A stretch of 24,946 bases of DNA from an uncultured virus (IMG/VR IMGVR_UViG_3300014810_000001). Taxonomy: Duplodnaviria > Heunggongvirae > Uroviricota > Caudoviricetes. The translations under genes and the position numbers were made by a program. Positions 855 through 15,259 of this stretch are shown one piece after another. The notes beneath the pieces are model-generated. The model was not told the origin of the DNA and did not search any database. It saw only the letters and a list, made by a program, of their open reading frames with translations. The DNA is taken from the IMG/VR virus record IMGVR_UViG_3300014810_000001, positions 62,001 through 86,946 of that record. One strand, 5' to 3'. Positions within the stretch are counted from its first letter, which is position 1. Each line of letters opens with the position of its first letter.

Positions 855-2321
855 ATGGCTGCAAGAAAGAAAACAGTTACGAAGGCAGTCAGTCCTTTGG
901 ATCAACCTGAGCGATTCAGGCTTGGTGAAGTTGGTGCCCTCGCTTTGAGGGTATTTAATGGTGTTACTCAAGACGAACTTCGCAGAGAGTTGAACTGGCC
1001 TAATAGTATCACTACCTACAAGCAAATGTCGGATCATAGTGCAATCAATGCCCCATTGACGCTTTTTTCCAACATCATTGCAAAAGCCACTTGGATTTAT
1101 AAGCCTCCTGAGAATGCAACTGAAGAAGAGAAGAACCAAGTTAAAATCATCAATCAGATGATGGGAGACATGGAGCACTCTTGGGGAGACTTTATCCAAG
1201 ATGTTTTGAGTTCTAATGTCTTTGGCTTCTGTGTAAACGAAAAGGTCTACCGTAAACGTTATAAAGCTAATGGTAGTATGTACGATGATGGCATTATTGG
1301 GTGGAAAAAACTCCCTATCCGAGTTCAAGAAAGTATTTCTAAGTTTATTTTCAGCGAAGATGGAAACGATGTAATTGGAGTGCAGCAAAATCTTTCTGCT
1401 ATCAATGATATTTATAATCGTTTTAGTCGTAAGAGTAACCTAATCAATATCCCTAGGAGTAAGTTCTTGCTTTTCCGCACTGGGAAACACCGTGGCGATC
1501 CGTTTGGTAAGTCTCCTCTTCGTGACGCATATCTTGCTTGGCGATTCCTCACTCAACTTGAAGAGCTTGAAGCACTCGGAGTTGCAAAAGACTTGAATGG
1601 TATCCCAGTTCTTAGATTGCCCCCTCAAGTTCTTTCCGCCGATGGAAGTCCTGAGAATCAAGACCAACGACTTTACTTCGAGAATGCGATTCGTAATCTT
1701 CAAGTAGGTGAACAGATGGGTATTATCCTGCCTGCGCTGTATGACGAACAAGGCAAGTCTCTCTACGATATTGAACTTTTGTCTACAGACGGTAAGAAGA
1801 ATTTTGATCTTAATAAGATTAAAGAGTACTATCGTGGTTTGATTTTTATTTCTCTTTTTGCAGACATACTTTTACAAGGGGTTACAAATACAGGTTCTTT
1901 TGCTCTTGGTTCTATCAAAAATAGTTTGTCAGGTGCCTATGCGGAACGTCTAATTTCAAATATTGCCGAAGTTATCCAGAACGATTTGATTCGACAAACG
2001 TATGAAATTAATTCGTGGCCTACGGATAGAATGGGTAAACTTGATTTTGATAATCTGGATAATACAGACGTAGAGAGCTTGAGTAAGTATTTGCAGCGTG
2101 TAGCATCTGTCGGGTTGCTGGAAAAAGACCGTGCCGTTCTTAATGCCGTGCGGCAAGGAATTGGCATTGACCCATTACCTGAAGATTTAGAACCACAGCT
2201 TGATTTGATTACCCCTGAAACAAGTCGCGCGAGCGACGGTTTAGCGACGCCATTTGAGGGCACGCGAACATCCGATGGCGGACAGAATGACAACGATGGG
2301 AATCTAGACAATGCGGCCTGA
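855..2321 (+). CDS. Portal protein (DUF935-like)
   Basis: 488 aa, SD AAGGGAG upstream, follows terL; motifs FGFCVNEKVY, GDPFGKSPLR, GSFALG; acidic C-terminal tail. Confidence 0.88.
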   Translation: MAARKKTVTKAVSPLDQPERFRLGEVGALALRVFNGVTQDELRRELNWPNSITTYKQMSDHSAINAPLTLFSNIIAKATWIYKPPENATEEEKNQVKIINQMMGDMEHSWGDFIQDVLSSNVFGFCVNEKVYRKRYKANGSMYDDGIIGWKKLPIRVQESISKFIFSEDGNDVIGVQQNLSAINDIYNRFSRKSNLINIPRSKFLLFRTGKHRGDPFGKSPLRDAYLAWRFLTQLEELEALGVAKDLNGIPVLRLPPQVLSADGSPENQDQRLYFENAIRNLQVGEQMGIILPALYDEQGKSLYDIELLSTDGKKNFDLNKIKEYYRGLIFISLFADILLQGVTNTGSFALGSIKNSLSGAYAERLISNIAEVIQNDLIRQTYEINSWPTDRMGKLDFDNLDNTDVESLSKYLQRVASVGLLEKDRAVLNAVRQGIGIDPLPEDLEPQLDLITPETSRASDGLATPFEGTRTSDGGQNDNDGNLDNAA

Positions 2322-3006
2322 AGTTCAAATAAAAAAGGGTTTCACAATCACTCCACAAAACTACTATGTTTATTTGCATGTAAAAGAAGATGACGGCACA
2401 GTGTTTTATGTAGGAAAAGGTACGAAACTTCGGTGGTGCGTTTCAAACAGTCGCACAATCCATTGGAAGAATACCGCAAGTAAACATGGAGTGATTTGTC
2501 ACATTGTAGCTCACAATCTTACAGCCGAGGAAGCTTTGATTTTAGAAAAGAAATTGATTGCTTCCTATGGTAGACAAGATCAGAAAACGGGTTGTTTGGT
2601 CAACCTTACTGATGGAGGTGATGGGGTTGTTAACTACGTTTGGACTGAGGCACACCGGAATAAAATCTCTGAAGCTGGACGAGGCAGAAAACACACTGAA
2701 GAGTTTAAGAAAATGGTTTCTAAAGTTCATAAGGGTAAGGTCTTGTCGGAAGATACTCGTTCTAAAATCTCTGCGAGCCGTGTGGGCAAGAAGTGGACAC
2801 CTGCTCAAAGAGAAGCAGGGGAAGATAGACCAAATCCCTTCGGGAGGAAAGTAATCTGTATCAGTACAGGTGATATTTTTCCAAGTGTAGCTAAGGCTGC
2901 AAAGCACTTCAACATTGATCCTTCTGCTATCAATAAAGTTTGTTTGGGTAAAATTAAACAAACTAAAACTCTTGTTTTTAAGTATGTTACGGAAGAGCAA
3001 TCATGA
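2311..3006 (+). CDS. Free-standing GIY-YIG-type homing endonuclease (HEG1) with NUMOD3 repeats and a C-terminal NUMOD1/IENR1-like HTH
   Basis: YYVYLH..VFYVGKG..R..EALILEKKLI..LVNLTDGGDG nuclease motifs; HTEEFKKMVS and LSEDTRSKIS NUMOD3-like units; KVICISTGDIFPSVAKAAKHF. Start overlaps the portal end by 11 nt. Confidence 0.88.
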   Translation: MRPEVQIKKGFTITPQNYYVYLHVKEDDGTVFYVGKGTKLRWCVSNSRTIHWKNTASKHGVICHIVAHNLTAEEALILEKKLIASYGRQDQKTGCLVNLTDGGDGVVNYVWTEAHRNKISEAGRGRKHTEEFKKMVSKVHKGKVLSEDTRSKISASRVGKKWTPAQREAGEDRPNPFGRKVICISTGDIFPSVAKAAKHFNIDPSAINKVCLGKIKQTKTLVFKYVTEEQS

Positions 3007-3626: not shown

Positions 3627-4082
3627 ATGGCACGTTTACAACTTCGCAGAGGTCTAAAGACCAACCTTCCTACCACCGGTATGCTTGCTGGTGAAGCGCA
3701 CTTTACCACTGACCGTGGCACTTTGCACGTAGCTACTGACCCTACAACTAAACTCCCTGTCGTACCCGCAATTGACGATCTCACTACGCTTGCTTCAGTG
3801 GATGGTGCAGCAGACTTGCTCATTATTCACGATGCCTCACAAGCATCTGGTCAGAAAGAAAAGAAGATTACCTTTGATGCTTTTAAGACTGCCCTTAATA
3901 TTCCTCCAGGTTCAAGCGATGAAAAGGTTGCTGTGGTGGCAGGGGGGACAGCAGGATATTTGTGGGGTACGGACGGAACTAATGGTGTTTTTCGTCTAAA
4001 CAGCTCCTTGTCGTGGACTAAGGATGCAGGTAATGCGTTTGTGACCCTTGCAGTTGAGACTGTAGACGGAGGCCAATTCTGA
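3627..4082 (+). CDS. Fibre-like protein with Mtd-N/hyaluronidase-N-type anchor motif
   Basis: MARLQLRRG..LP..LAGE..FTTDRGTL N-terminal anchor motif; C-terminal VDGGQF. Confidence 0.65.
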   Translation: MARLQLRRGLKTNLPTTGMLAGEAHFTTDRGTLHVATDPTTKLPVVPAIDDLTTLASVDGAADLLIIHDASQASGQKEKKITFDAFKTALNIPPGSSDEKVAVVAGGTAGYLWGTDGTNGVFRLNSSLSWTKDAGNAFVTLAVETVDGGQF

Positions 4083-4870
4083 CAAAGGATTATTATGTCT
4101 ACGTACATAGGAGAAAAGACAACAATACCGTATTCTATGTTGGTAAAGGCAGAGGGGAACGATGTAAACGTTCCAGAAACTACAAGTCTTGGAAAAATGT
4201 TGTAGATCAATCCTGTGGTTTCATTTACGAGATTATCTATAGCAGTCTAGGAGAGGAAGAAGCATTAAAGATAGAAAAAGAATTAATTCTTAATCCTCCG
4301 AAAGATTGGGAATTAATCAATAAGTACTCATCAAACACAAAAATAAATCTACAATTAGATTTACTTTCTAGTCAAGTTTATTATGACCCTTCTTCTCCTA
4401 GTGGCCTTAGACATTCTTTTACTAAAGGGCCTGTTATTAAAGATGAAATCGCAGGAACTTTGAAAACAGTAAACGGTCGTCCAGAGGCATGGTCTGTCAA
4501 AATAAAAGGTAGACTATACACTGCAGCAAGAGTTGTGTGGATTTTACAGCACGGAAGCATAGACGACGATCTAGTAGTTGACCATATAGACAGAAATGTC
4601 TCCAATAACGATATCTCAAATCTACGATTAGTGAGCGTTAAAGAGAACAACGCAAATAGGTCCATCGGTAGAAACAATAAAACAGGTGTTAATGGTGTTC
4701 AGCATTATTTTCATCAAGGTTTTGAATACTACACAGCCTACGTATCTGTTGACGGTAAATCAAAATTGGTTTATTTTTCTACTAAAAAATTAGGAAAAGA
4801 ACAAGCATTCTTAGCGGCAGTACAATGCAGGCGAGAGAGTGAACAGAAAGCATCTATATGCCTAGAGTAA
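4079..4870 (+). CDS. GIY-YIG + HNH + AP2-like endonuclease (HEG2), probable CTG start, 263 aa
   Basis: The frame of track ORF 4460..4870 is open back to 4058 and encodes KDYYVYVHRRKDNNTVFYVGKGRGERC..EEALKIEKELI..LINK. GGAGG at 4068-4072 lies 6 nt before CTG 4079. HNH motif VVDHIDRNVSNNDISNLR; AP2-like tail FSTKKLGKEQAFLAA. Confidence 0.82.
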   Translation: MTKDYYVYVHRRKDNNTVFYVGKGRGERCKRSRNYKSWKNVVDQSCGFIYEIIYSSLGEEEALKIEKELILNPPKDWELINKYSSNTKINLQLDLLSSQVYYDPSSPSGLRHSFTKGPVIKDEIAGTLKTVNGRPEAWSVKIKGRLYTAARVVWILQHGSIDDDLVVDHIDRNVSNNDISNLRLVSVKENNANRSIGRNNKTGVNGVQHYFHQGFEYYTAYVSVDGKSKLVYFSTKKLGKEQAFLAAVQCRRESEQKASICLE

Positions 4871-5081: not shown

Positions 5082-5240
5082 ATGCAAGTCGGCGATATTG
5101 TAAAAGTACTTTCACCTTTTAATGAAACCTATTCGGATACCTATAGCATTACAGATATTGTAATTACTGAAGATAATCAAACTGTCTATATTCTTGGGGA
5201 GCTTGGTGCATTTTCTGAAATTTATTTGGAGATTGTATGA
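5082..5240 (+). CDS. Hypothetical protein, 52 aa
   Basis: SD-like GAAGGG before ATG 5082; MQVGDIVKV start; ATGA overlap with the next gene. Confidence 0.55.
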   Translation: MQVGDIVKVLSPFNETYSDTYSITDIVITEDNQTVYILGELGAFSEIYLEIV

Positions 5241-6076
5241 CGATTACATCAAGAGATGGATTGATTAAAGCCCTTGGAAATAACTCAAGTCGTTTTATTC
5301 TTGACAAGGCTAACATTGCCTCTCAAGCTGCCGGGACATATGTCAGTCTATGGAGAGCAACAGGTCAACCAGGGCAAGGTGCGATCCCTGCTGCAACCGC
5401 CGTTTGTAACAATACGACACTTGGAGGCATGGGTTTTACTCAGCAAACTTCTCCAGCTACTAGTTATGGTTCATACATGGAAGTTGCTACCAGTAACTCA
5501 GCAATGACTGTAGAAATCCATGACCGACTTGCTCACATGGGTGGGTTGAACGGTACGCTAACTACTGCACAAACTGCAAGTCTTGATCTGTCAACATTGG
5601 GTGCAACAAATAATATCTCTAATCGAATCGGGGATACGAACTATTCGGACGTTCAATGGTGGCTTGAATGGTACACAGCTACGGGTGCAACTGCAGTTAC
5701 AGTAACTGTAAACGTCACGTATAACGATGGTACAACTGGAGCACTTACAGGTGCTTCTCTTGCTGCAACCCGTCCTGCTAGTTTTATGCTGTCCTTGAAT
5801 GCTCTTATTCCTGCCGCTAGTTCTGGTAAGTATATTCGTGCAGTCAATAACGTTACTCTTTCAGCTACTACAGGTACTGCTGGTAGTTTTGGTGTAACAG
5901 CTACTCGTCCACGAATGACTCTTGCTGCACCAATTGCAAATATGAAGTTTGTCGCAGATTGGGCACAACTTGGTTTTCCAGAAATCTTTAACGAAGCTTG
6001 TCTATTCCCGATTGTCCTTACGAGTACAACCTCTACAGGGACAGTGCGTGGTGGTGGCAAGATTAGTCACGGTTGA
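5237..6076 (+). CDS. Thr/Ala/Gly-rich putative virion structural protein, 279 aa
   Basis: SD GGAG, ATGA coupling, beta-rich composition, position within the head module. Confidence 0.65.
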   Translation: MTITSRDGLIKALGNNSSRFILDKANIASQAAGTYVSLWRATGQPGQGAIPAATAVCNNTTLGGMGFTQQTSPATSYGSYMEVATSNSAMTVEIHDRLAHMGGLNGTLTTAQTASLDLSTLGATNNISNRIGDTNYSDVQWWLEWYTATGATAVTVTVNVTYNDGTTGALTGASLAATRPASFMLSLNALIPAASSGKYIRAVNNVTLSATTGTAGSFGVTATRPRMTLAAPIANMKFVADWAQLGFPEIFNEACLFPIVLTSTTSTGTVRGGGKISHG

Positions 6077-6793: not shown

Positions 6794-7816
6794 ATGATGG
6801 AGCAGTCATACTATAAAGAACAATTTGAAAGAAAAGATTCAAATAGGTTTTATGTTTATATCCATCGTAGACTTTCAGACAATAAGCCTTTTTATGTTGG
6901 TAAAGGCTGCGGAATTAGGGCATGGAACCAATCCTCTAGAAGTAATTACTGGAAAAGGGTTGTTGGTAAACACGGTCTTAAAGTTGAAATTGTTTTCGAT
7001 AACTTGGAAGAACAAGATTCGTTTCAGATAGAAAAAGACACTATTCTTGAATTTCAGTATTTTGGGTATTCTCTTGTAAATCACACATTAGGTGGTGAGG
7101 GAGTATCTGGTTATAAGTTTACCGAAGAGCAGCGTTCCAATATGAGTCTTGCTAAAGGTGGAACAGGTCTGTCTAGGTCTCTTAGTAGAGCCACGTCTAA
7201 AAGACGAACTAAAGATTCTTGTATTTATAAGTTTACAAGTCTTTCTGGTGAGAGTTGTATTTGTACTAGAAAATCTCTACAAAAAGAGTTTGGACTGAAC
7301 TCCCGTGACACCCAAACAATTGTCAATGGAAGTCTAAGTAAAGGTTGGTTTTTATTAAAAGATGACGAGACTGTTTTACAAGGAATTACTAGAATTAAGA
7401 ATAAAGATTCTGGTGTAAATAGTAAAACAGCTACGACTGATATTTATACTTTTGTACACAAAGACACTTGTGAATTATTTGTCGGAACTAGGATGGAACT
7501 TGTTACGCAAAAGGGTGTGAACAGAATATCTCTTAGCCAGGTGTTTAATAAGAATAACTCAGCACAGTCTGCACAAGGTTGGGGAGTTTTGAGTAACTCC
7601 GAAACTATTGAACAATGTACTGATCGTTTAAAAACATCCAGAAGTAAATCTAAGTCTGACAGCACCGTTTATGGATTTATTCATAAGAGTGGTCTGAGTT
7701 TTGAAGGAACTCGGTATGAACTGGCTGAAAAATTTAACATAGATCAGAACCAACTTTGTTCTTTATTCGGAAATAAAAAGAGAAAGACTGTTGCAGGATG
7801 GTCATTAAAAGGGTGA
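6794..7816 (+). CDS. GIY-YIG-type homing endonuclease (HEG3) with three C-terminal repeats
   Basis: FYVYIHRRLSDNKPFYVGKG..RAW..IEKDTI..LVNHTLGGEG; SD AAAGGA (ATG 6797 has better spacing); three Y-x-F...TR..L...GW units. Confidence 0.88.
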   Translation: MMEQSYYKEQFERKDSNRFYVYIHRRLSDNKPFYVGKGCGIRAWNQSSRSNYWKRVVGKHGLKVEIVFDNLEEQDSFQIEKDTILEFQYFGYSLVNHTLGGEGVSGYKFTEEQRSNMSLAKGGTGLSRSLSRATSKRRTKDSCIYKFTSLSGESCICTRKSLQKEFGLNSRDTQTIVNGSLSKGWFLLKDDETVLQGITRIKNKDSGVNSKTATTDIYTFVHKDTCELFVGTRMELVTQKGVNRISLSQVFNKNNSAQSAQGWGVLSNSETIEQCTDRLKTSRSKSKSDSTVYGFIHKSGLSFEGTRYELAEKFNIDQNQLCSLFGNKKRKTVAGWSLKG

Positions 7817-9229: not shown

Positions 9230-10255
9230 ATGCCTCTGTATACTTCTCCTACCAGCAACTTTGAAGTTGTTGATCGCACAAATGAGATTCTAGTTCTTCC
9301 GCAGAATTGGACTCTCATGAATGACTCCGGTATGTGGCAAGAGGAATTCCTCACTACCCGTACCGTTACTTTTGAAGAGCGTGGTGGTCACCTCTTTATC
9401 GTCAAGGATCAAGTTCCTGGCGCTCCTCCTCAAACCACTGGTAACGACCTGCGTAAGCTGCACAGCTACCCAATGTCGCATCACCCTTTCATGGATGCTC
9501 TGCTGCCTCAAGACATTGCTACCGTGCTGCGTCCCGGTGCTCTGGCTCCTGAACTGGATTCCAAGGATCGTGCTCTAATGGTGAAGATGGAACGTATTCG
9601 TAAGTCCTACGACCGTACTATTAACTTCGCACGTTTCCGTACTATTGCTAATGGCGATATCTGGGCGCCTAACGGAACTATTAGTGGAAACCTGTACACG
9701 GACTTTAATATTACCCGCCAAAACGTTAATTTCGATCTGGCTACGGCTACGACTGATATTATCGACAAATGCCAGCAAGTTATTTCTAACTTCCAGTCAC
9801 AAGCTACTGAAGGTCAAGAAATTCAACGTGTTGTTGCGTACTGCTCCCCCGGTTTCTTCTCTGCTTTCATTGCTCACCCGAAGGTTCAGGCCGCGTACAA
9901 TATTTATGCTGTTGCTGCTCCCCAGCAAATCAGCCGTGATCGTGCAGGTGGGATGGGCCTGTATCGCCGTTTCACTTTCTCGAATATCGAATTCATTGAA
10001 GTGACTCAGAGCATTGACGGCACTCCTCTGGTTGATACCGACAAGTGCGTGTTTGTTGCAGATGACGGCGATGGTGCTTTCATGACCTATTATGGCCCAC
10101 CTAACCGCTTCGGCTTTGTGAACACTCCTGCTGTTTCTACGTACATGTGGACGTTCGAGGATCAACGCGGAACTCAAGTTACTATCGAAGCTGAGTCCAA
10201 TTTTATCAACCTGATGCGTCGCCCAGGATTTGTGAGCGGAGGCTCCAAGGCTTAA
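9230..10255 (+). CDS. Major capsid protein (lambda gpE / Phage_cap_E type)
   Basis: 341 aa, SD TAAGGA, strongly biased codon usage; motifs NLYTDFNIT, CSPGFFSAFIAHPKV, TYYGP, IEAESN..RRP; followed by a terminator. Confidence 0.92.
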   Translation: MPLYTSPTSNFEVVDRTNEILVLPQNWTLMNDSGMWQEEFLTTRTVTFEERGGHLFIVKDQVPGAPPQTTGNDLRKLHSYPMSHHPFMDALLPQDIATVLRPGALAPELDSKDRALMVKMERIRKSYDRTINFARFRTIANGDIWAPNGTISGNLYTDFNITRQNVNFDLATATTDIIDKCQQVISNFQSQATEGQEIQRVVAYCSPGFFSAFIAHPKVQAAYNIYAVAAPQQISRDRAGGMGLYRRFTFSNIEFIEVTQSIDGTPLVDTDKCVFVADDGDGAFMTYYGPPNRFGFVNTPAVSTYMWTFEDQRGTQVTIEAESNFINLMRRPGFVSGGSKA

Positions 10256-10268
10256 TAGCAAAATAATC

Positions 10269-10288
10269 GGACTCTTCGGAGTCCTTTT
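10269..10288 (+). terminator. Intrinsic terminator after the capsid gene
   Basis: GGACTC-TTCG-GAGTCC-TTTT (cUUCGg tetraloop). Confidence 0.8.
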
Positions 10289-10299
10289 ATCACAACATT

Positions 10300-10328
10300 T
10301 TGACAAGATCAGAGAGTTGTGATAAAGT
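10300..10328 (+). promoter_or_regulatory. Sigma70-type promoter for HEG4
   Basis: TTGACA (10300-10305), 17 nt, TAAAGT (10323-10328) with TGn extension. Confidence 0.65.
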
Positions 10329-10335
10329 TTGACTT

Positions 10336-10423
10336 TAAACAACGGCTAGGCTGATCCCCGAAAAGATTGATACCCCACCAATCCTGCCACTTGTTTTATT
10401 GTGGGATTTATTATGGGGAATAA
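10336..10423 (+). ncRNA. Putative structured cis-regulatory leader RNA of HEG4
   Basis: AAACAA/TTGTTT, GGC/GCC and AG/CT outer stem; GATTG/CAATC inner stem; loop ATACCCCAC complementary to GTGGG (10401) and TGGGG (10414). Confidence 0.5.
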
Positions 10424-11245
10424 ATGTACGAAAATTTAAAATACTGTGTTTATATTCATCGTAGGAAAACAGATAACTCTGTTTTCTATATTGGAAGTGG
10501 TAGAGAGTATAGAGCACAAAGCCCTAGTGGACGAACCAGCATTTGGAAGAATGAAGCAGACACTCATGGTTTTATAGTAGAAATACTTGAATCGGATTTA
10601 TCTAAGGCTGAGTCTTTAGAAAGAGAATTGCACTATTACGATAGTTTTAAAGACAGCAAGAATCTGGTTAATACTAAACCTCCTGCACTTGCTAAATCTT
10701 TTGATAAAGAGTTTTTGTCTCAATATGTTTATTATGACGAGACTAGTGAGACATTTTTAAGATGGAATTACACTTCAGATTTAGTGTACGGAAGTCACAG
10801 ACCTGAAGTAGGAAAAGTTGCAGGAACGCTCGGAAGCAATGTAAACATTTTGAAAGTACCCTATTCAGGTCACAAAGTTGTTTGGGCTTTGCACTACGGA
10901 GATATTCCGGCTGATATGGTTATTGACCACATAGATGGTAATCCAAAGAACAACAACATTAACAATCTTAGGATGATTCCGCAAAGTCTTAATTGTAAGA
11001 ACAGAGGAATGTCTAAGAATAATAAGACAAGTGTTTCTGGTGTAGTACATTACTTACAACCAAAACAGTGTGAATATTTCCGTGCTCAGGTTGCAATTGG
11101 AAATGGTAGAAATCAGCAGAAGTATTTTTCTGTCAAGAAATACGGCAAAGAAGAAGCCTTTCGCCTTGCTGTTGAATGGCGTGCAGCCAGAATCAAAGAA
11201 CTAAACGAACAAGGCGCTGGCTACACCGAACGACACGGTACATGA
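10424..11245 (+). CDS. GIY-YIG + HNH + AP2-like endonuclease (HEG4)
   Basis: YCVYIHRRKTDNSVFYIGSG..RA..LERE..LVN; YYDETSETFLRW; VIDHIDGNPKNNNINNLR; KYFSVKKYGKEEAFRLAVEWR..YTERHG. Confidence 0.88.
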   Translation: MYENLKYCVYIHRRKTDNSVFYIGSGREYRAQSPSGRTSIWKNEADTHGFIVEILESDLSKAESLERELHYYDSFKDSKNLVNTKPPALAKSFDKEFLSQYVYYDETSETFLRWNYTSDLVYGSHRPEVGKVAGTLGSNVNILKVPYSGHKVVWALHYGDIPADMVIDHIDGNPKNNNINNLRMIPQSLNCKNRGMSKNNKTSVSGVVHYLQPKQCEYFRAQVAIGNGRNQQKYFSVKKYGKEEAFRLAVEWRAARIKELNEQGAGYTERHGT

Positions 11246-11307
11246 AGAACGGAGGCTTTGCCTCCTTCTCTCAAAACTCTTTGTAAAACCAGAGGCTTTT
11301 GAAAGAA
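11246..11307 (+). terminator. Terminator-like hairpin followed by a second long hairpin
   Basis: GGAGGC-TTT-GCCTCC-TTCT, then TTCTCTCAAAA...TTTTGAAAGAA. Confidence 0.5.
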
Positions 11308-14269: not shown

Positions 14270-14298
14270 TTGACTTAGTTTAACATTTCTGCTATAAT
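14270..14298 (+). promoter_or_regulatory. Near-consensus sigma70 promoter for HEG5
   Basis: TTGACT (14270-14275), 17 nt, TATAAT (14293-14298) with TGn; begins 1 nt after the tail tube stop. Confidence 0.75.
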
Positions 14299-14337
14299 CC
14301 CTCTATTGCTTAACGGCTTAGAGGGATTTTTCATTTC
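14296..14337 (+). terminator. Terminator-like hairpin after the tail tube gene
   Basis: AATCCCTCTA (14296-14305) pairs with TAGAGGGATT (14319-14328), followed by TTTCATTTC. Confidence 0.65.
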
Positions 14338-14353
14338 TGAAAGGAGTTTTATT

Positions 14354-15259
14354 TTGGATTTTTATGTGTATCTTCATAAGAAGAAGACGACTGGAGAAGT
14401 GTTCTATGTCGGCAAAGGGAGCGGACGTAGAGCATGGCAACATTCTGATAGGAGTAAATATTGGAAAAGGATAGCCATGAAGTACGGATACATTGTTGAA
14501 ATTGTACAATACAATATTCAAGAGTGGTATGCTTTTGAGTTAGAAAAAGAACTAATTGCGTACTATGGAAGAGAGAACTTAAATGAAGGTACTCTTGTAA
14601 ATTTCACAGATGGTGGAGAAGGAGTTTCGGGTTATATTTGCTCACCTGAGAGAAAACAGGAAATGAGTAAGCAACGCAAAGGCGAATTACACCCTAATTA
14701 TAAACCAGAACTCTTGTACTTCTACAACATAGACACAGGTGCTATTGTCTCAGACACAAGGGCAGGATTCAAGAAGTCTTTTCCGGAAGTTTCCGTAAGA
14801 GCATTGATTTCTAAGAGTCAACGAAGTTCAAAAAGATGGACTATTCTTGATATTAGTACTGAAGAAGATATAAAGGCTCTTACCACAGGCATATTCAAAG
14901 GAGAGAACAATGGGAACTTTGACCATCGGACACATGAGTTGGTGAACATATGGACAGGGGAGACATTTAATGGTACTCGGGTAGAGTTTACCGCGAAATT
15001 TAATTTGAAATTGGATATTTTATTTGATGAATCACACAGCACAACTACTGTTAGCGGTTGGTGTCTTGTAGAAAACCTAGCACAAGTGAAGAAGATGTTC
15101 GTACACACTGTTCATTTATTTGAATCCACCGATGGTAAAATTTTCAAAGGTACTCATAAAGAATTTATTAAAGAATATGGTTATTCTTTGGAGAACTTAT
15201 TTAGAAAGAAAAGGCCTGCCAAAGTTTCCAGAGGATGGCGATTGCTTAAACATAAATAA
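14354..15259 (+). CDS. GIY-YIG-type homing endonuclease (HEG5) with three C-terminal repeats, TTG start
   Basis: SD AAGGAG (14341-14346) 7 nt before TTG 14354; FYVYLHKKKTTGEVFYVGKG..RAW..LEKELIAYYGR..LVNFTDGGEG. Confidence 0.88.
   Translation: MDFYVYLHKKKTTGEVFYVGKGSGRRAWQHSDRSKYWKRIAMKYGYIVEIVQYNIQEWYAFELEKELIAYYGRENLNEGTLVNFTDGGEGVSGYICSPERKQEMSKQRKGELHPNYKPELLYFYNIDTGAIVSDTRAGFKKSFPEVSVRALISKSQRSSKRWTILDISTEEDIKALTTGIFKGENNGNFDHRTHELVNIWTGETFNGTRVEFTAKFNLKLDILFDESHSTTTVSGWCLVENLAQVKKMFVHTVHLFESTDGKIFKGTHKEFIKEYGYSLENLFRKKRPAKVSRGWRLLKHK

Follow-up and report, generated by a model that had tools for sequence, protein, structure and literature searches.

The catalogued RNA closest to the leader described here is the int-alpA motif (RF02996), which was reportedly first described by Weinberg et al. 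in 2017, probably in the supplement. Rfam types it as 'Gene; sRNA', and its structure line is drawn without any pairing between loop and boxes and stops inside the element called box 1 below. No mechanism or characterisation of int-alpA was found in the literature searched; the accessible part of the main text of PMC5737381 does not name the motif, and the 2017 supplement, outside this search, may note pairing with the ribosome binding site (RBS). The C4 RNA of phage P1 and the CI RNA of phage P4 are described, in the available portions of PMC5320573 and PMC4825925, as processed from their own leader and as presenting variable loops to flanking targets. T4-type phages restrain their homing endonucleases by RBS hairpins in cis, according to the accessible text of PMC2988022. 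GACG loops form kissing homodimers of two base pairs in retroviral RNA, and the same source calls observations of functional RNA dimers rare (PMC7357161, accessible part). The available text of Weiss 2016 allows no match of its groups 3-6 to the leader RNA.

The locus lies in a window of 24,946 nt, which is taken up by the structural operon of a phage with a complete genome of 86,946 bp and encodes terminase, portal, protease, decoration protein, major capsid (9230-10255, PF03864) and tail tube. In its capsid protein the phage shares 35-37% identity with Limnohabitans phage DC31 and the Pseudomonas phages PN09 and phiPsa374, and from this resemblance we take it to be probably lytic. Five nuclease-like ORFs (starts 2311, 4079, 6794, 10424 and 14306) break up the operon, among them the free-standing GIY-YIG-like ORFs 2311-3006, 6794-7816 and 14306-15259, and all four matches of a GIY-YIG motif scan of the whole genome fall inside the window. 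We further note a stable hairpin (14296-14328), possibly another leader type, directly after a promoter-like site at 14270 and before the nuclease ORF 14306. The ORFs 3627-4082 and 5237-6076 in the portal-to-protease interval resemble, by eye, virion accessory or decoration genes and not core genes.

The leader cassette is placed between a terminator-like UUCG hairpin with a U-tract 3' of the major capsid gene (10269-10290, plus strand) and a plus-strand ORF of 273 amino acids (10424-11245). This ORF contains a GIY-YIG domain (residues ~5-86), an HNH domain (150-188) and an AP2 DNA-binding domain (219-255). Pfam matches are HNH_3 and AP2, the invariant GIY-YIG residues Y10, H12, Y22, G24, G26, R30, E68 and N83 are present, and the best fold match is the I-TevI catalytic domain (E 6e-3, probability 1.00, TM 0.60 to target). 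Judged by its domains and its optional insertion it would be a free-standing homing-type nuclease, with predicted cleavage and homing. DC31 provides the empty site, in which the capsid gene is followed after 103 bp by a 52%-identical homologue of ORF 11330. At the post-capsid site of related viral contigs (L048, L077, L189, L095) the same leader occurs with other loops and other nucleases, and a cassette like that of L077 is found at another site in L164. The first-pass annotation had proposed an RNA that travels with a dual-nuclease gene, which is in agreement with these observations. A paralogous GIY-YIG+HNH+AP2 nuclease ORF of 263 amino acids (4079-4870, plus strand), 40% identical to ORF 10424, carries no leader RNA; it possesses no ATG, and its frame opens at a CTG that shares bases with the TGA stop of the preceding ORF, which suggests translational coupling or a decayed start. 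As loops and nucleases vary at the site and the paralogue is leaderless, leader and nuclease appear to move together while neither needs the other. A protein-led search for relatives returned six loci, all of them distant HNH-only matches and none with the leader motif, a result that speaks to distant relatives only.

A sigma70-type promoter is predicted in front of the leader (10300-10328, plus strand), consisting of TTGACA (10300-10305), a 17-nt spacer and an extended -10 element TGnTAAAGT (10320-10328), with 10 out of 12 consensus matches. One must keep in mind that promoter-like sites between 6000 and 16000 are not more frequent than by chance (24 vs. 20.4 ± 3.6). Across the family a -10 hexamer stands just 5' of stem P1 in 64 out of 146 members, compared to 12 out of 146 in a control interval; the leader RNA therefore likely forms the 5' end of the transcript, with a predicted start at approximately 10334-10336, the foot of P1. 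An inverted repeat (10286-10326, 18-nt arms, 83%) overlaps the promoter and could represent an RNase III site in read-through RNA, a cruciform or an operator. Promoter-overlapping hairpins of unlike sequence occur at the same site in L048, L077, L189 and L647 (DC31). Such a repeat is not general, as among nine strict promoter matches one scored 10/10 and one 8. A weaker hairpin or inverted repeat lies 3' of the nuclease gene (~11270-11300).

In the linker 3' of P1 the T fraction amounts to 0.41 vs. 0.25 across members, a modest U-tract. An intrinsic terminator after P1 was rejected as a family-wide feature, TTTT being present in 30 out of 146 members only. Four raw RNA runs picked by species label contained 0 reads on the Acinetobacter-type homologue L021, which is not the window locus. 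Four RNA-library contig sets span the L021 locus, and such contigs can neither show RNA ends nor exclude DNA.

The leader (10337-10396, plus strand) pairs comparatively as a three-way junction in the order P1, UA, P2, GAAAA, P3, CU. P1 joins 10337-10342 and 10344-10346 with 10386-10388 and 10391-10396 (arms AAACAA.GGC / GCC..TTGTTT) and is interrupted in the window copy. From the single sequence this fold is inconspicuous: the leader alone folds like its shuffles (z -0.26, and -0.07 with the boxes), and its minimum free energy structure misses the P3 hairpin. The Rfam check proposed by the first-pass annotation had a divided outcome, returning nothing for the window at the gathering threshold and int-alpA, an orphan motif for which no characterisation was found, in E-value mode (28.7 bits, E 4.5e-4, or E 2.3e-5 at whole-genome scale). 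The alignment extends from 10339 to 10405 and covers model positions 1-71, the full length. As 28.7 bits is below the cut-off of 35.8, the window leader is a divergent relative and not a formal member of RF02996, and the notion of an undescribed system gives way to that of a sub-threshold relative. When 20 homologue loci were scanned with this model, 18 matched at E up to 1 and nine lay above the cut-off; L003, L025, L037, L048 and L054 have an identical 22-nt core yet exceed it. A MAFFT alignment of 38 members, pre-selected for parsable P1 and P3, gave 89.3% paired cells and a covariation of 0.568 vs. at most 0.116 for slid partners, with two-sided changes in 9 out of 14 P1/P3 pairs. Pair counts for P1 and P3 from the later pool of 146 members would be circular and were left unused. 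Together, the RF02996 matches and the P1/P3 covariation indicate that 10337-10396 is a real int-alpA-type three-way junction, a divergent one with a short P2, and comparative analysis thus supports the leader well as a regulatory RNA of a catalogued orphan family. The mechanism proposed below was not found in the literature searched.

The exact 22-nt core occurs in approximately 130 viral-contig stretches, and a relaxed core in about 420 metagenome and 121 genome stretches, some of them chance matches, spread over Proteobacteria, Planctomycetes, Acidobacteria and others. A sister subgroup with another P2 loop adds an estimated 1200 viral stretches. Related copies are present in cultured phages, including several of Vibrio and of Acinetobacter, Enterobacter Tyrion, and Pseudomonas D3, where the copy lies upstream of orf23; the complete genome of the phage itself contains no further leader copy. 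Several int-alpA copies per genome were seen elsewhere (L617/L618 in G086, L610/L613 in G003, four matches in G154), some of them ~700-2600 nt apart and with similar loops. In L054 a group I intron match (148-384) and a second, weak int-alpA-like match (2181-2226, minus strand) lie near the leader-bearing HNH gene. The presence of CUGAU..GAAA led us to consider a hammerhead ribozyme, which was dismissed by eye. The hammerhead core has a G at position 8, which is not G here; stem II is lacking, GC-type loops are without CUGA, and there is no Rfam match.

P3 is a hairpin of 5 bp (10365-10383, plus strand) whose stem GATTG (10365-10369) / CAATC (10379-10383) encloses the loop ATACCCCAC (10370-10378), the variable specificity loop AUACCCCAC. 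Box 1, GUGGG (10401-10405, plus strand), is complementary to loop nucleotides 10374-10378, which include the 3'-most loop base. Box 2 (10414-10419, plus strand; UGGGG at 10414-10418) is complementary to 10373-10377 and overlaps the Shine-Dalgarno (SD)-like GGGGA, which stands 4 nt before ATG 10424. The boxes are 12 nt apart in register, following the registers of the family, and each forms an equal, short duplex of -9.1 kcal/mol with the loop; towards the anti-SD, box 2 reaches -5.5 and box 1 -4.0 kcal/mol. Promoter, arms, hairpin, boxes (10401 and 10413) and ATG had all been placed correctly in the first-pass annotation. Its additional pairing of an internal ATCCCC with a box is an accident of the window copy: no covariation was found, and GGGGA occurs downstream in 6 out of 80 CC-type, 3 out of 20 CA-type and 4 out of 43 GC-type members.

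Pyrimidine-rich loops might fit any SD region by chance, a reading that could appeal to the C/U-rich loops and to the ordinary folding energy of the single window sequence. We compared loops and leaders across members, which were never picked by their boxes. In the discovery set (39 out of 45 members, loops longer than 14 nt left out) two runs of at least five pairs occur in 21 out of 39 members vs. 2.6% after swapping, and the permutation score of 382 compares to a maximum of 237 in 100,000 permutations. A hold-out set from metagenomes and genomes was found by a pattern without P3 or boxes; the comparison that includes it used 102 out of 161 non-redundant matches, as nine others had long loops and 50 failed the strict parser, a mix of chance matches and true members with G-U pairs. 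In the hold-out set the best run reaches at least five pairs in 59 out of 64 members vs. 20%, and two such runs are present in 39 out of 64 vs. 4.5%. The pool (146 out of 156) comprises 146 non-redundant members with 138 different loops, and two runs of at least five Watson-Crick pairs occur in 82 out of 146 vs. 3.9% in composition-matched swaps. All four bases contribute to the covariation, and box 1, which is not the RBS, nevertheless covaries more strongly. Chance complementarity is therefore rejected. The homologues and the loop covariation asked for at the outset were thus obtained for both boxes, and the earlier picture, in which the loop of a conserved and structured leader pairs with boxes over the RBS in a C4/CI-like logic of variable loop and RBS-side target, is strengthened. 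Irrespective of which variant of the model is right, we are highly confident that loop and boxes do pair and that this pairing controls translation.

The window loop finds no double match in the leaders of 145 other members. No 4-nt match is present at one of the boxes in 26 out of 146 members, and by eye the loop of canonical int-alpA members also fits two boxes. In Acinetobacter-type prophage copies (L021:1501-1600 and relatives), which precede an antirepressor-like gene, box 2 lies, by eye, over the start codon. L008, L205 and L636 have lost their boxes, and the next ORF is far away.

The positions of the loop matches form two sharp peaks at offsets 9-17 and 22-29, the spacing between the boxes is 10-15 nt in 106 out of 120 members, and the linker is poor in G (2-8% at positions 6-10). 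Box 1 pairs with loop positions 0-5 counted from the 3' end and box 2 with positions 1-5. In a leave-one-out calculation position 0 pairs with box 1 in 95 out of 130 members (expected 37), and with box 2 at chance (28 out of 124, expected 27.9), so that the two contacts differ in geometry. These unlike registers are absent from the first-pass annotation, as is the self-complementary P2 loop discussed below. Identity between the boxes is 0.78 where they pair and 0.26 in the flanking positions; this restriction to the paired span indicates selection, not only duplication. Of the two, box 2 fits the anti-SD better in 91 out of 120 members and lies mostly 4-10 nt before the start codon.

Pairing of the base next to the stem is the geometry of a stacked pseudoknot. 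Box 1 pairs with this 3'-most loop base, as in a stacked H-type pseudoknot, and is made first, which makes it the putative partner in cis. By our estimate the linker of 6-9 nt may be barely long enough for this pseudoknot if P1 stacks on P3. The reverse assignment, in which the loop would cover box 2 of its own RNA by default and a partner or read-through would free the RBS, so that the nuclease appears only late in infection, is improbable in our view. The longer linker to box 2 would make such pairing easier, and the accessible parts of the sources describe T4 homing endonucleases as late-only as a rule (PMC2988022) and IsrK as activating translation in trans (PMC4825925). This assignment has to face the facts that box 1 is made first, forms the stacking pair at position 0 and in most members is no weaker than box 2, and that a partner on box 1 would not by itself free box 2. 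Energy does not fix the direction of switching, as box strengths are near-equal and mixed (stronger loop duplex at box 1 in 64 out of 120 and at box 2 in 42 out of 120 members).

The second loop of the junction adds a further hint. P2 (10349-10359, plus strand) consists of a 2-bp stem and a 7-nt loop with the palindrome GAUC (10353-10356) and is predicted to act as a kissing, that is dimerising, loop; a short P2 of this kind recurs in the above-cut-off members L610, L617 and L618. Keeping the flanking core constant, we scanned viral contigs separately for the different classes of dinucleotide at the loop centre. The centre GC accounts for an estimated 1200 viral stretches (all 50 non-redundant ones sampled were GC) and AT for approximately 120-130 under narrower patterns. 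A pyrimidine in the first place (position 4) gave nine matches, five of which form one real UA family with the palindrome UUAA while four look like chance. The remaining centres were rare: one purine-purine match (GAUC shifted by one base), two AC matches (one apparently by chance, one with a shifted longer palindrome) and one GT match, a wobble variant. Self-complementary centres seen in the family are AU, GC, UA and CG. In the pool, in which two subgroups dominate, 145 out of 146 centres are self-complementary and 129 out of 146 extend to four bases, the outer pair of the palindrome being broken in 17 out of 146. Among the RF02996 matches listed from bacterial genomes (16 of 24 loci) seven have GACG, eight another palindromic loop and one GACA. 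Exceptions are L625 (GACA) and L637 (GU centre). This evidence amounts to about five loop types and not to hundreds of independent events. As adjacent bases cannot pair inside one molecule, we read P2 as an intermolecular contact, which suggests kissing dimers between two RNA copies.

These results can be held against a purely intramolecular two-state switch or damper, in which the RBS would be open while the loop is bound to box 1 as a decoy and closed while it is bound to box 2, and P2 would serve a tertiary contact or bind a protein or ligand instead of dimerising. A single loop facing two boxes that are similarly strong and cannot be bound at once, both reachable over a flexible, G-poor linker, is what such a switch would need, and the cis hairpins of T4-type phages mentioned above offer a precedent. 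It leaves unexplained that the P2 centre changes only between self-complementary dinucleotides, and there is no obvious trigger that would suit downstream genes of this variety. We consider this switch unlikely, albeit a serious contender.

The variety of the downstream genes also bears on the function of the RNA. In the discovery set the ORFs following the leader (n = 43) comprise 21 nucleases, 8 antirepressors or Rha/KilA-type regulators, 3 replication initiators, 1 match to a head-morphogenesis protein (probably a mis-picked ORF) and 10 without match or unknown. Among the 132 pooled downstream ORFs, many of them partial, HNH_3 (15) and DUF1376 (6) are commonest, and a single one matches an integrase; at the window, too, a nuclease gene follows the leader in place of the int/alpA context that the family name implies. 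Judged from these annotations the leader is not nuclease-specific and also precedes antirepressors and replication initiators. Together with the leaderless paralogue this argues against a dedicated RNA-plus-nuclease cassette, as had been supposed. A conserved scaffold with a variable loop beside nuclease genes (21 out of 43) might still recall a guide or cofactor of an RNA-guided nuclease. We regard this as very improbable: the variable loop is just 7-10 nt long and follows the 5' UTR of the gene itself, the scaffold precedes unrelated folds and non-nucleases, the 40%-identical paralogue does without a leader, the protein has an AP2 domain of its own, and the genome holds no 9-nt complement of the loop elsewhere. 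The first-pass annotation had likewise seen no support for an RNA-guided role, and no sign of one was found.

We therefore propose, with a probability of roughly 0.45 and on the basis of sequence comparison, that the leader is a dose-sensing translational autorepressor whose own loop holds box 1 while a second copy covers box 2 at the RBS. In this model the nuclease mRNA would begin with the leader, folded into a three-way junction. Box 1 would be transcribed first and paired in cis by the P3 loop of the same molecule, so that box 2, the predicted RBS, would stay accessible in the earliest transcripts. Once leader RNA has accumulated, a second copy could dock via a P2-P2 kiss, and its loop would cover box 2. 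The partner could be a short stable leader RNA arising from termination or cleavage in the U-rich linker. The outcome would be an early burst followed by self-shut-off of the nuclease. Since loop and boxes are particular to each copy, repression would be specific to these sequences and would reach only copies of the same type, similar to the immunity groups of phages. The partner RNA, the intermolecular P2 kiss, the start at P1 and repression after a burst are steps we infer; the weak U-tract and the near-equal duplex energies speak against the model.

Instead of this autorepressor, an excised stable small RNA might act in trans as antisense in the manner of C4 and CI, occupying both boxes on newly made transcripts, either as a homodimer or as a pair of monomers, and causing a translation block or premature termination, with cis pairing unimportant. 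The C4 and CI precedents, the two boxes at a fixed spacing of 10-15 nt, which suit a dimer with two loops, and the frequency of antirepressors among the targets (regulators 8 out of 43) are in agreement with this view. It has difficulties with the 45 nt 5' of the RNA, where no upstream target is found (5 out of 38 and 9 out of 64 members vs. 12-14% in swaps, 14% for the latter), whereas CI has seqA upstream. Further, a start at P1, as predicted, leaves no leader for RNase P, the registers of the boxes differ, unlike those of a symmetric dimer, and the Rfam C4 model RF01695 matches neither the window (gathering threshold, or E up to 10) nor the 20 homologue loci (E up to 1). We hold such a trans mechanism to be doubtful.

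The dose-sensing autorepressor, if true, would be a dimer-dependent translational repressor and thus a new regulatory principle. It would offer a testable mechanism for an orphan Rfam motif that is found in cultured phages, Pseudomonas D3 for example, and in well over 1000 stretches of viral contigs, and would widen RNA control of the C4/CI type from the immunity of temperate phages to selfish nucleases in probably lytic ones. The 60-nt scaffold with its natural swaps of loops and boxes (138 loops in 146 members) could represent a source of orthogonal negative-feedback parts. As a broader conjecture, somewhat more tentative than the reading of the window itself, int-alpA RNAs could be widespread protein-free dimeric repressors, in which a palindromic kiss brings together two programmable loops that read a tandem 'operator' in the mRNA. 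A mobile gene would thereby sense the dose of its own RNA, burst on entry, shut off and exclude only copies with the same loop. Available in well over 100 orthogonal specificities, the portable module would have been taken up by selfish nucleases, by antirepressors and by replication initiators.

Compared to known systems, the window leader shares with int-alpA (RF02996) the three-way junction, the core elements UAG, CGAAAAG and CUG and the match over model positions 1-71. It differs in its P2 of 2 bp with a 7-nt GAUC loop, where int-alpA has 4 bp and GACG, in the interrupted P1, in the score under 35.8 bits and in its position before a homing-type nuclease in a probably lytic phage.

In C4 the upstream targets are a1 and b1, and the loops of C4 and CI are a' and b'; the window has one specificity loop for two tandem downstream boxes, and its family, unlike C4 and CI, shows no upstream target, a predicted start at P1 and a self-complementary second loop. 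Common to C4 (phages P1 and P7, RF01695), P4 CI and the window is a multi-stem RNA in the leader of the controlled gene, a variable loop complementary to an RBS target that sets the specificity, and the occurrence of antirepressors among the controlled genes (PMC5320573, PMC4825925, in their accessible parts).

With I-TevI, I-TevII, I-TevIII, segB and mobE of T4 the window has in common an RNA structure over the RBS of a phage homing endonuclease, and with I-TevI also the GIY-YIG domain of the nuclease. The T4-type structures are, as described in the available text of PMC2988022, simple hairpins removed by a late promoter, whereas in the window the predicted promoter lies 5' of the whole structure, a portable three-way junction that reads two boxes. 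Finally, the self-complementary loop resembles the GACG and palindromic kissing loops of retroviruses, in which as few as two pairs suffice (PMC7357161 and PMC516450, accessible parts), and GACG is also the common P2 loop of canonical int-alpA. The likeness is an analogy: dimerisation is predicted here, and its proposed use, unlike that of the retroviral loops, would be translational control.
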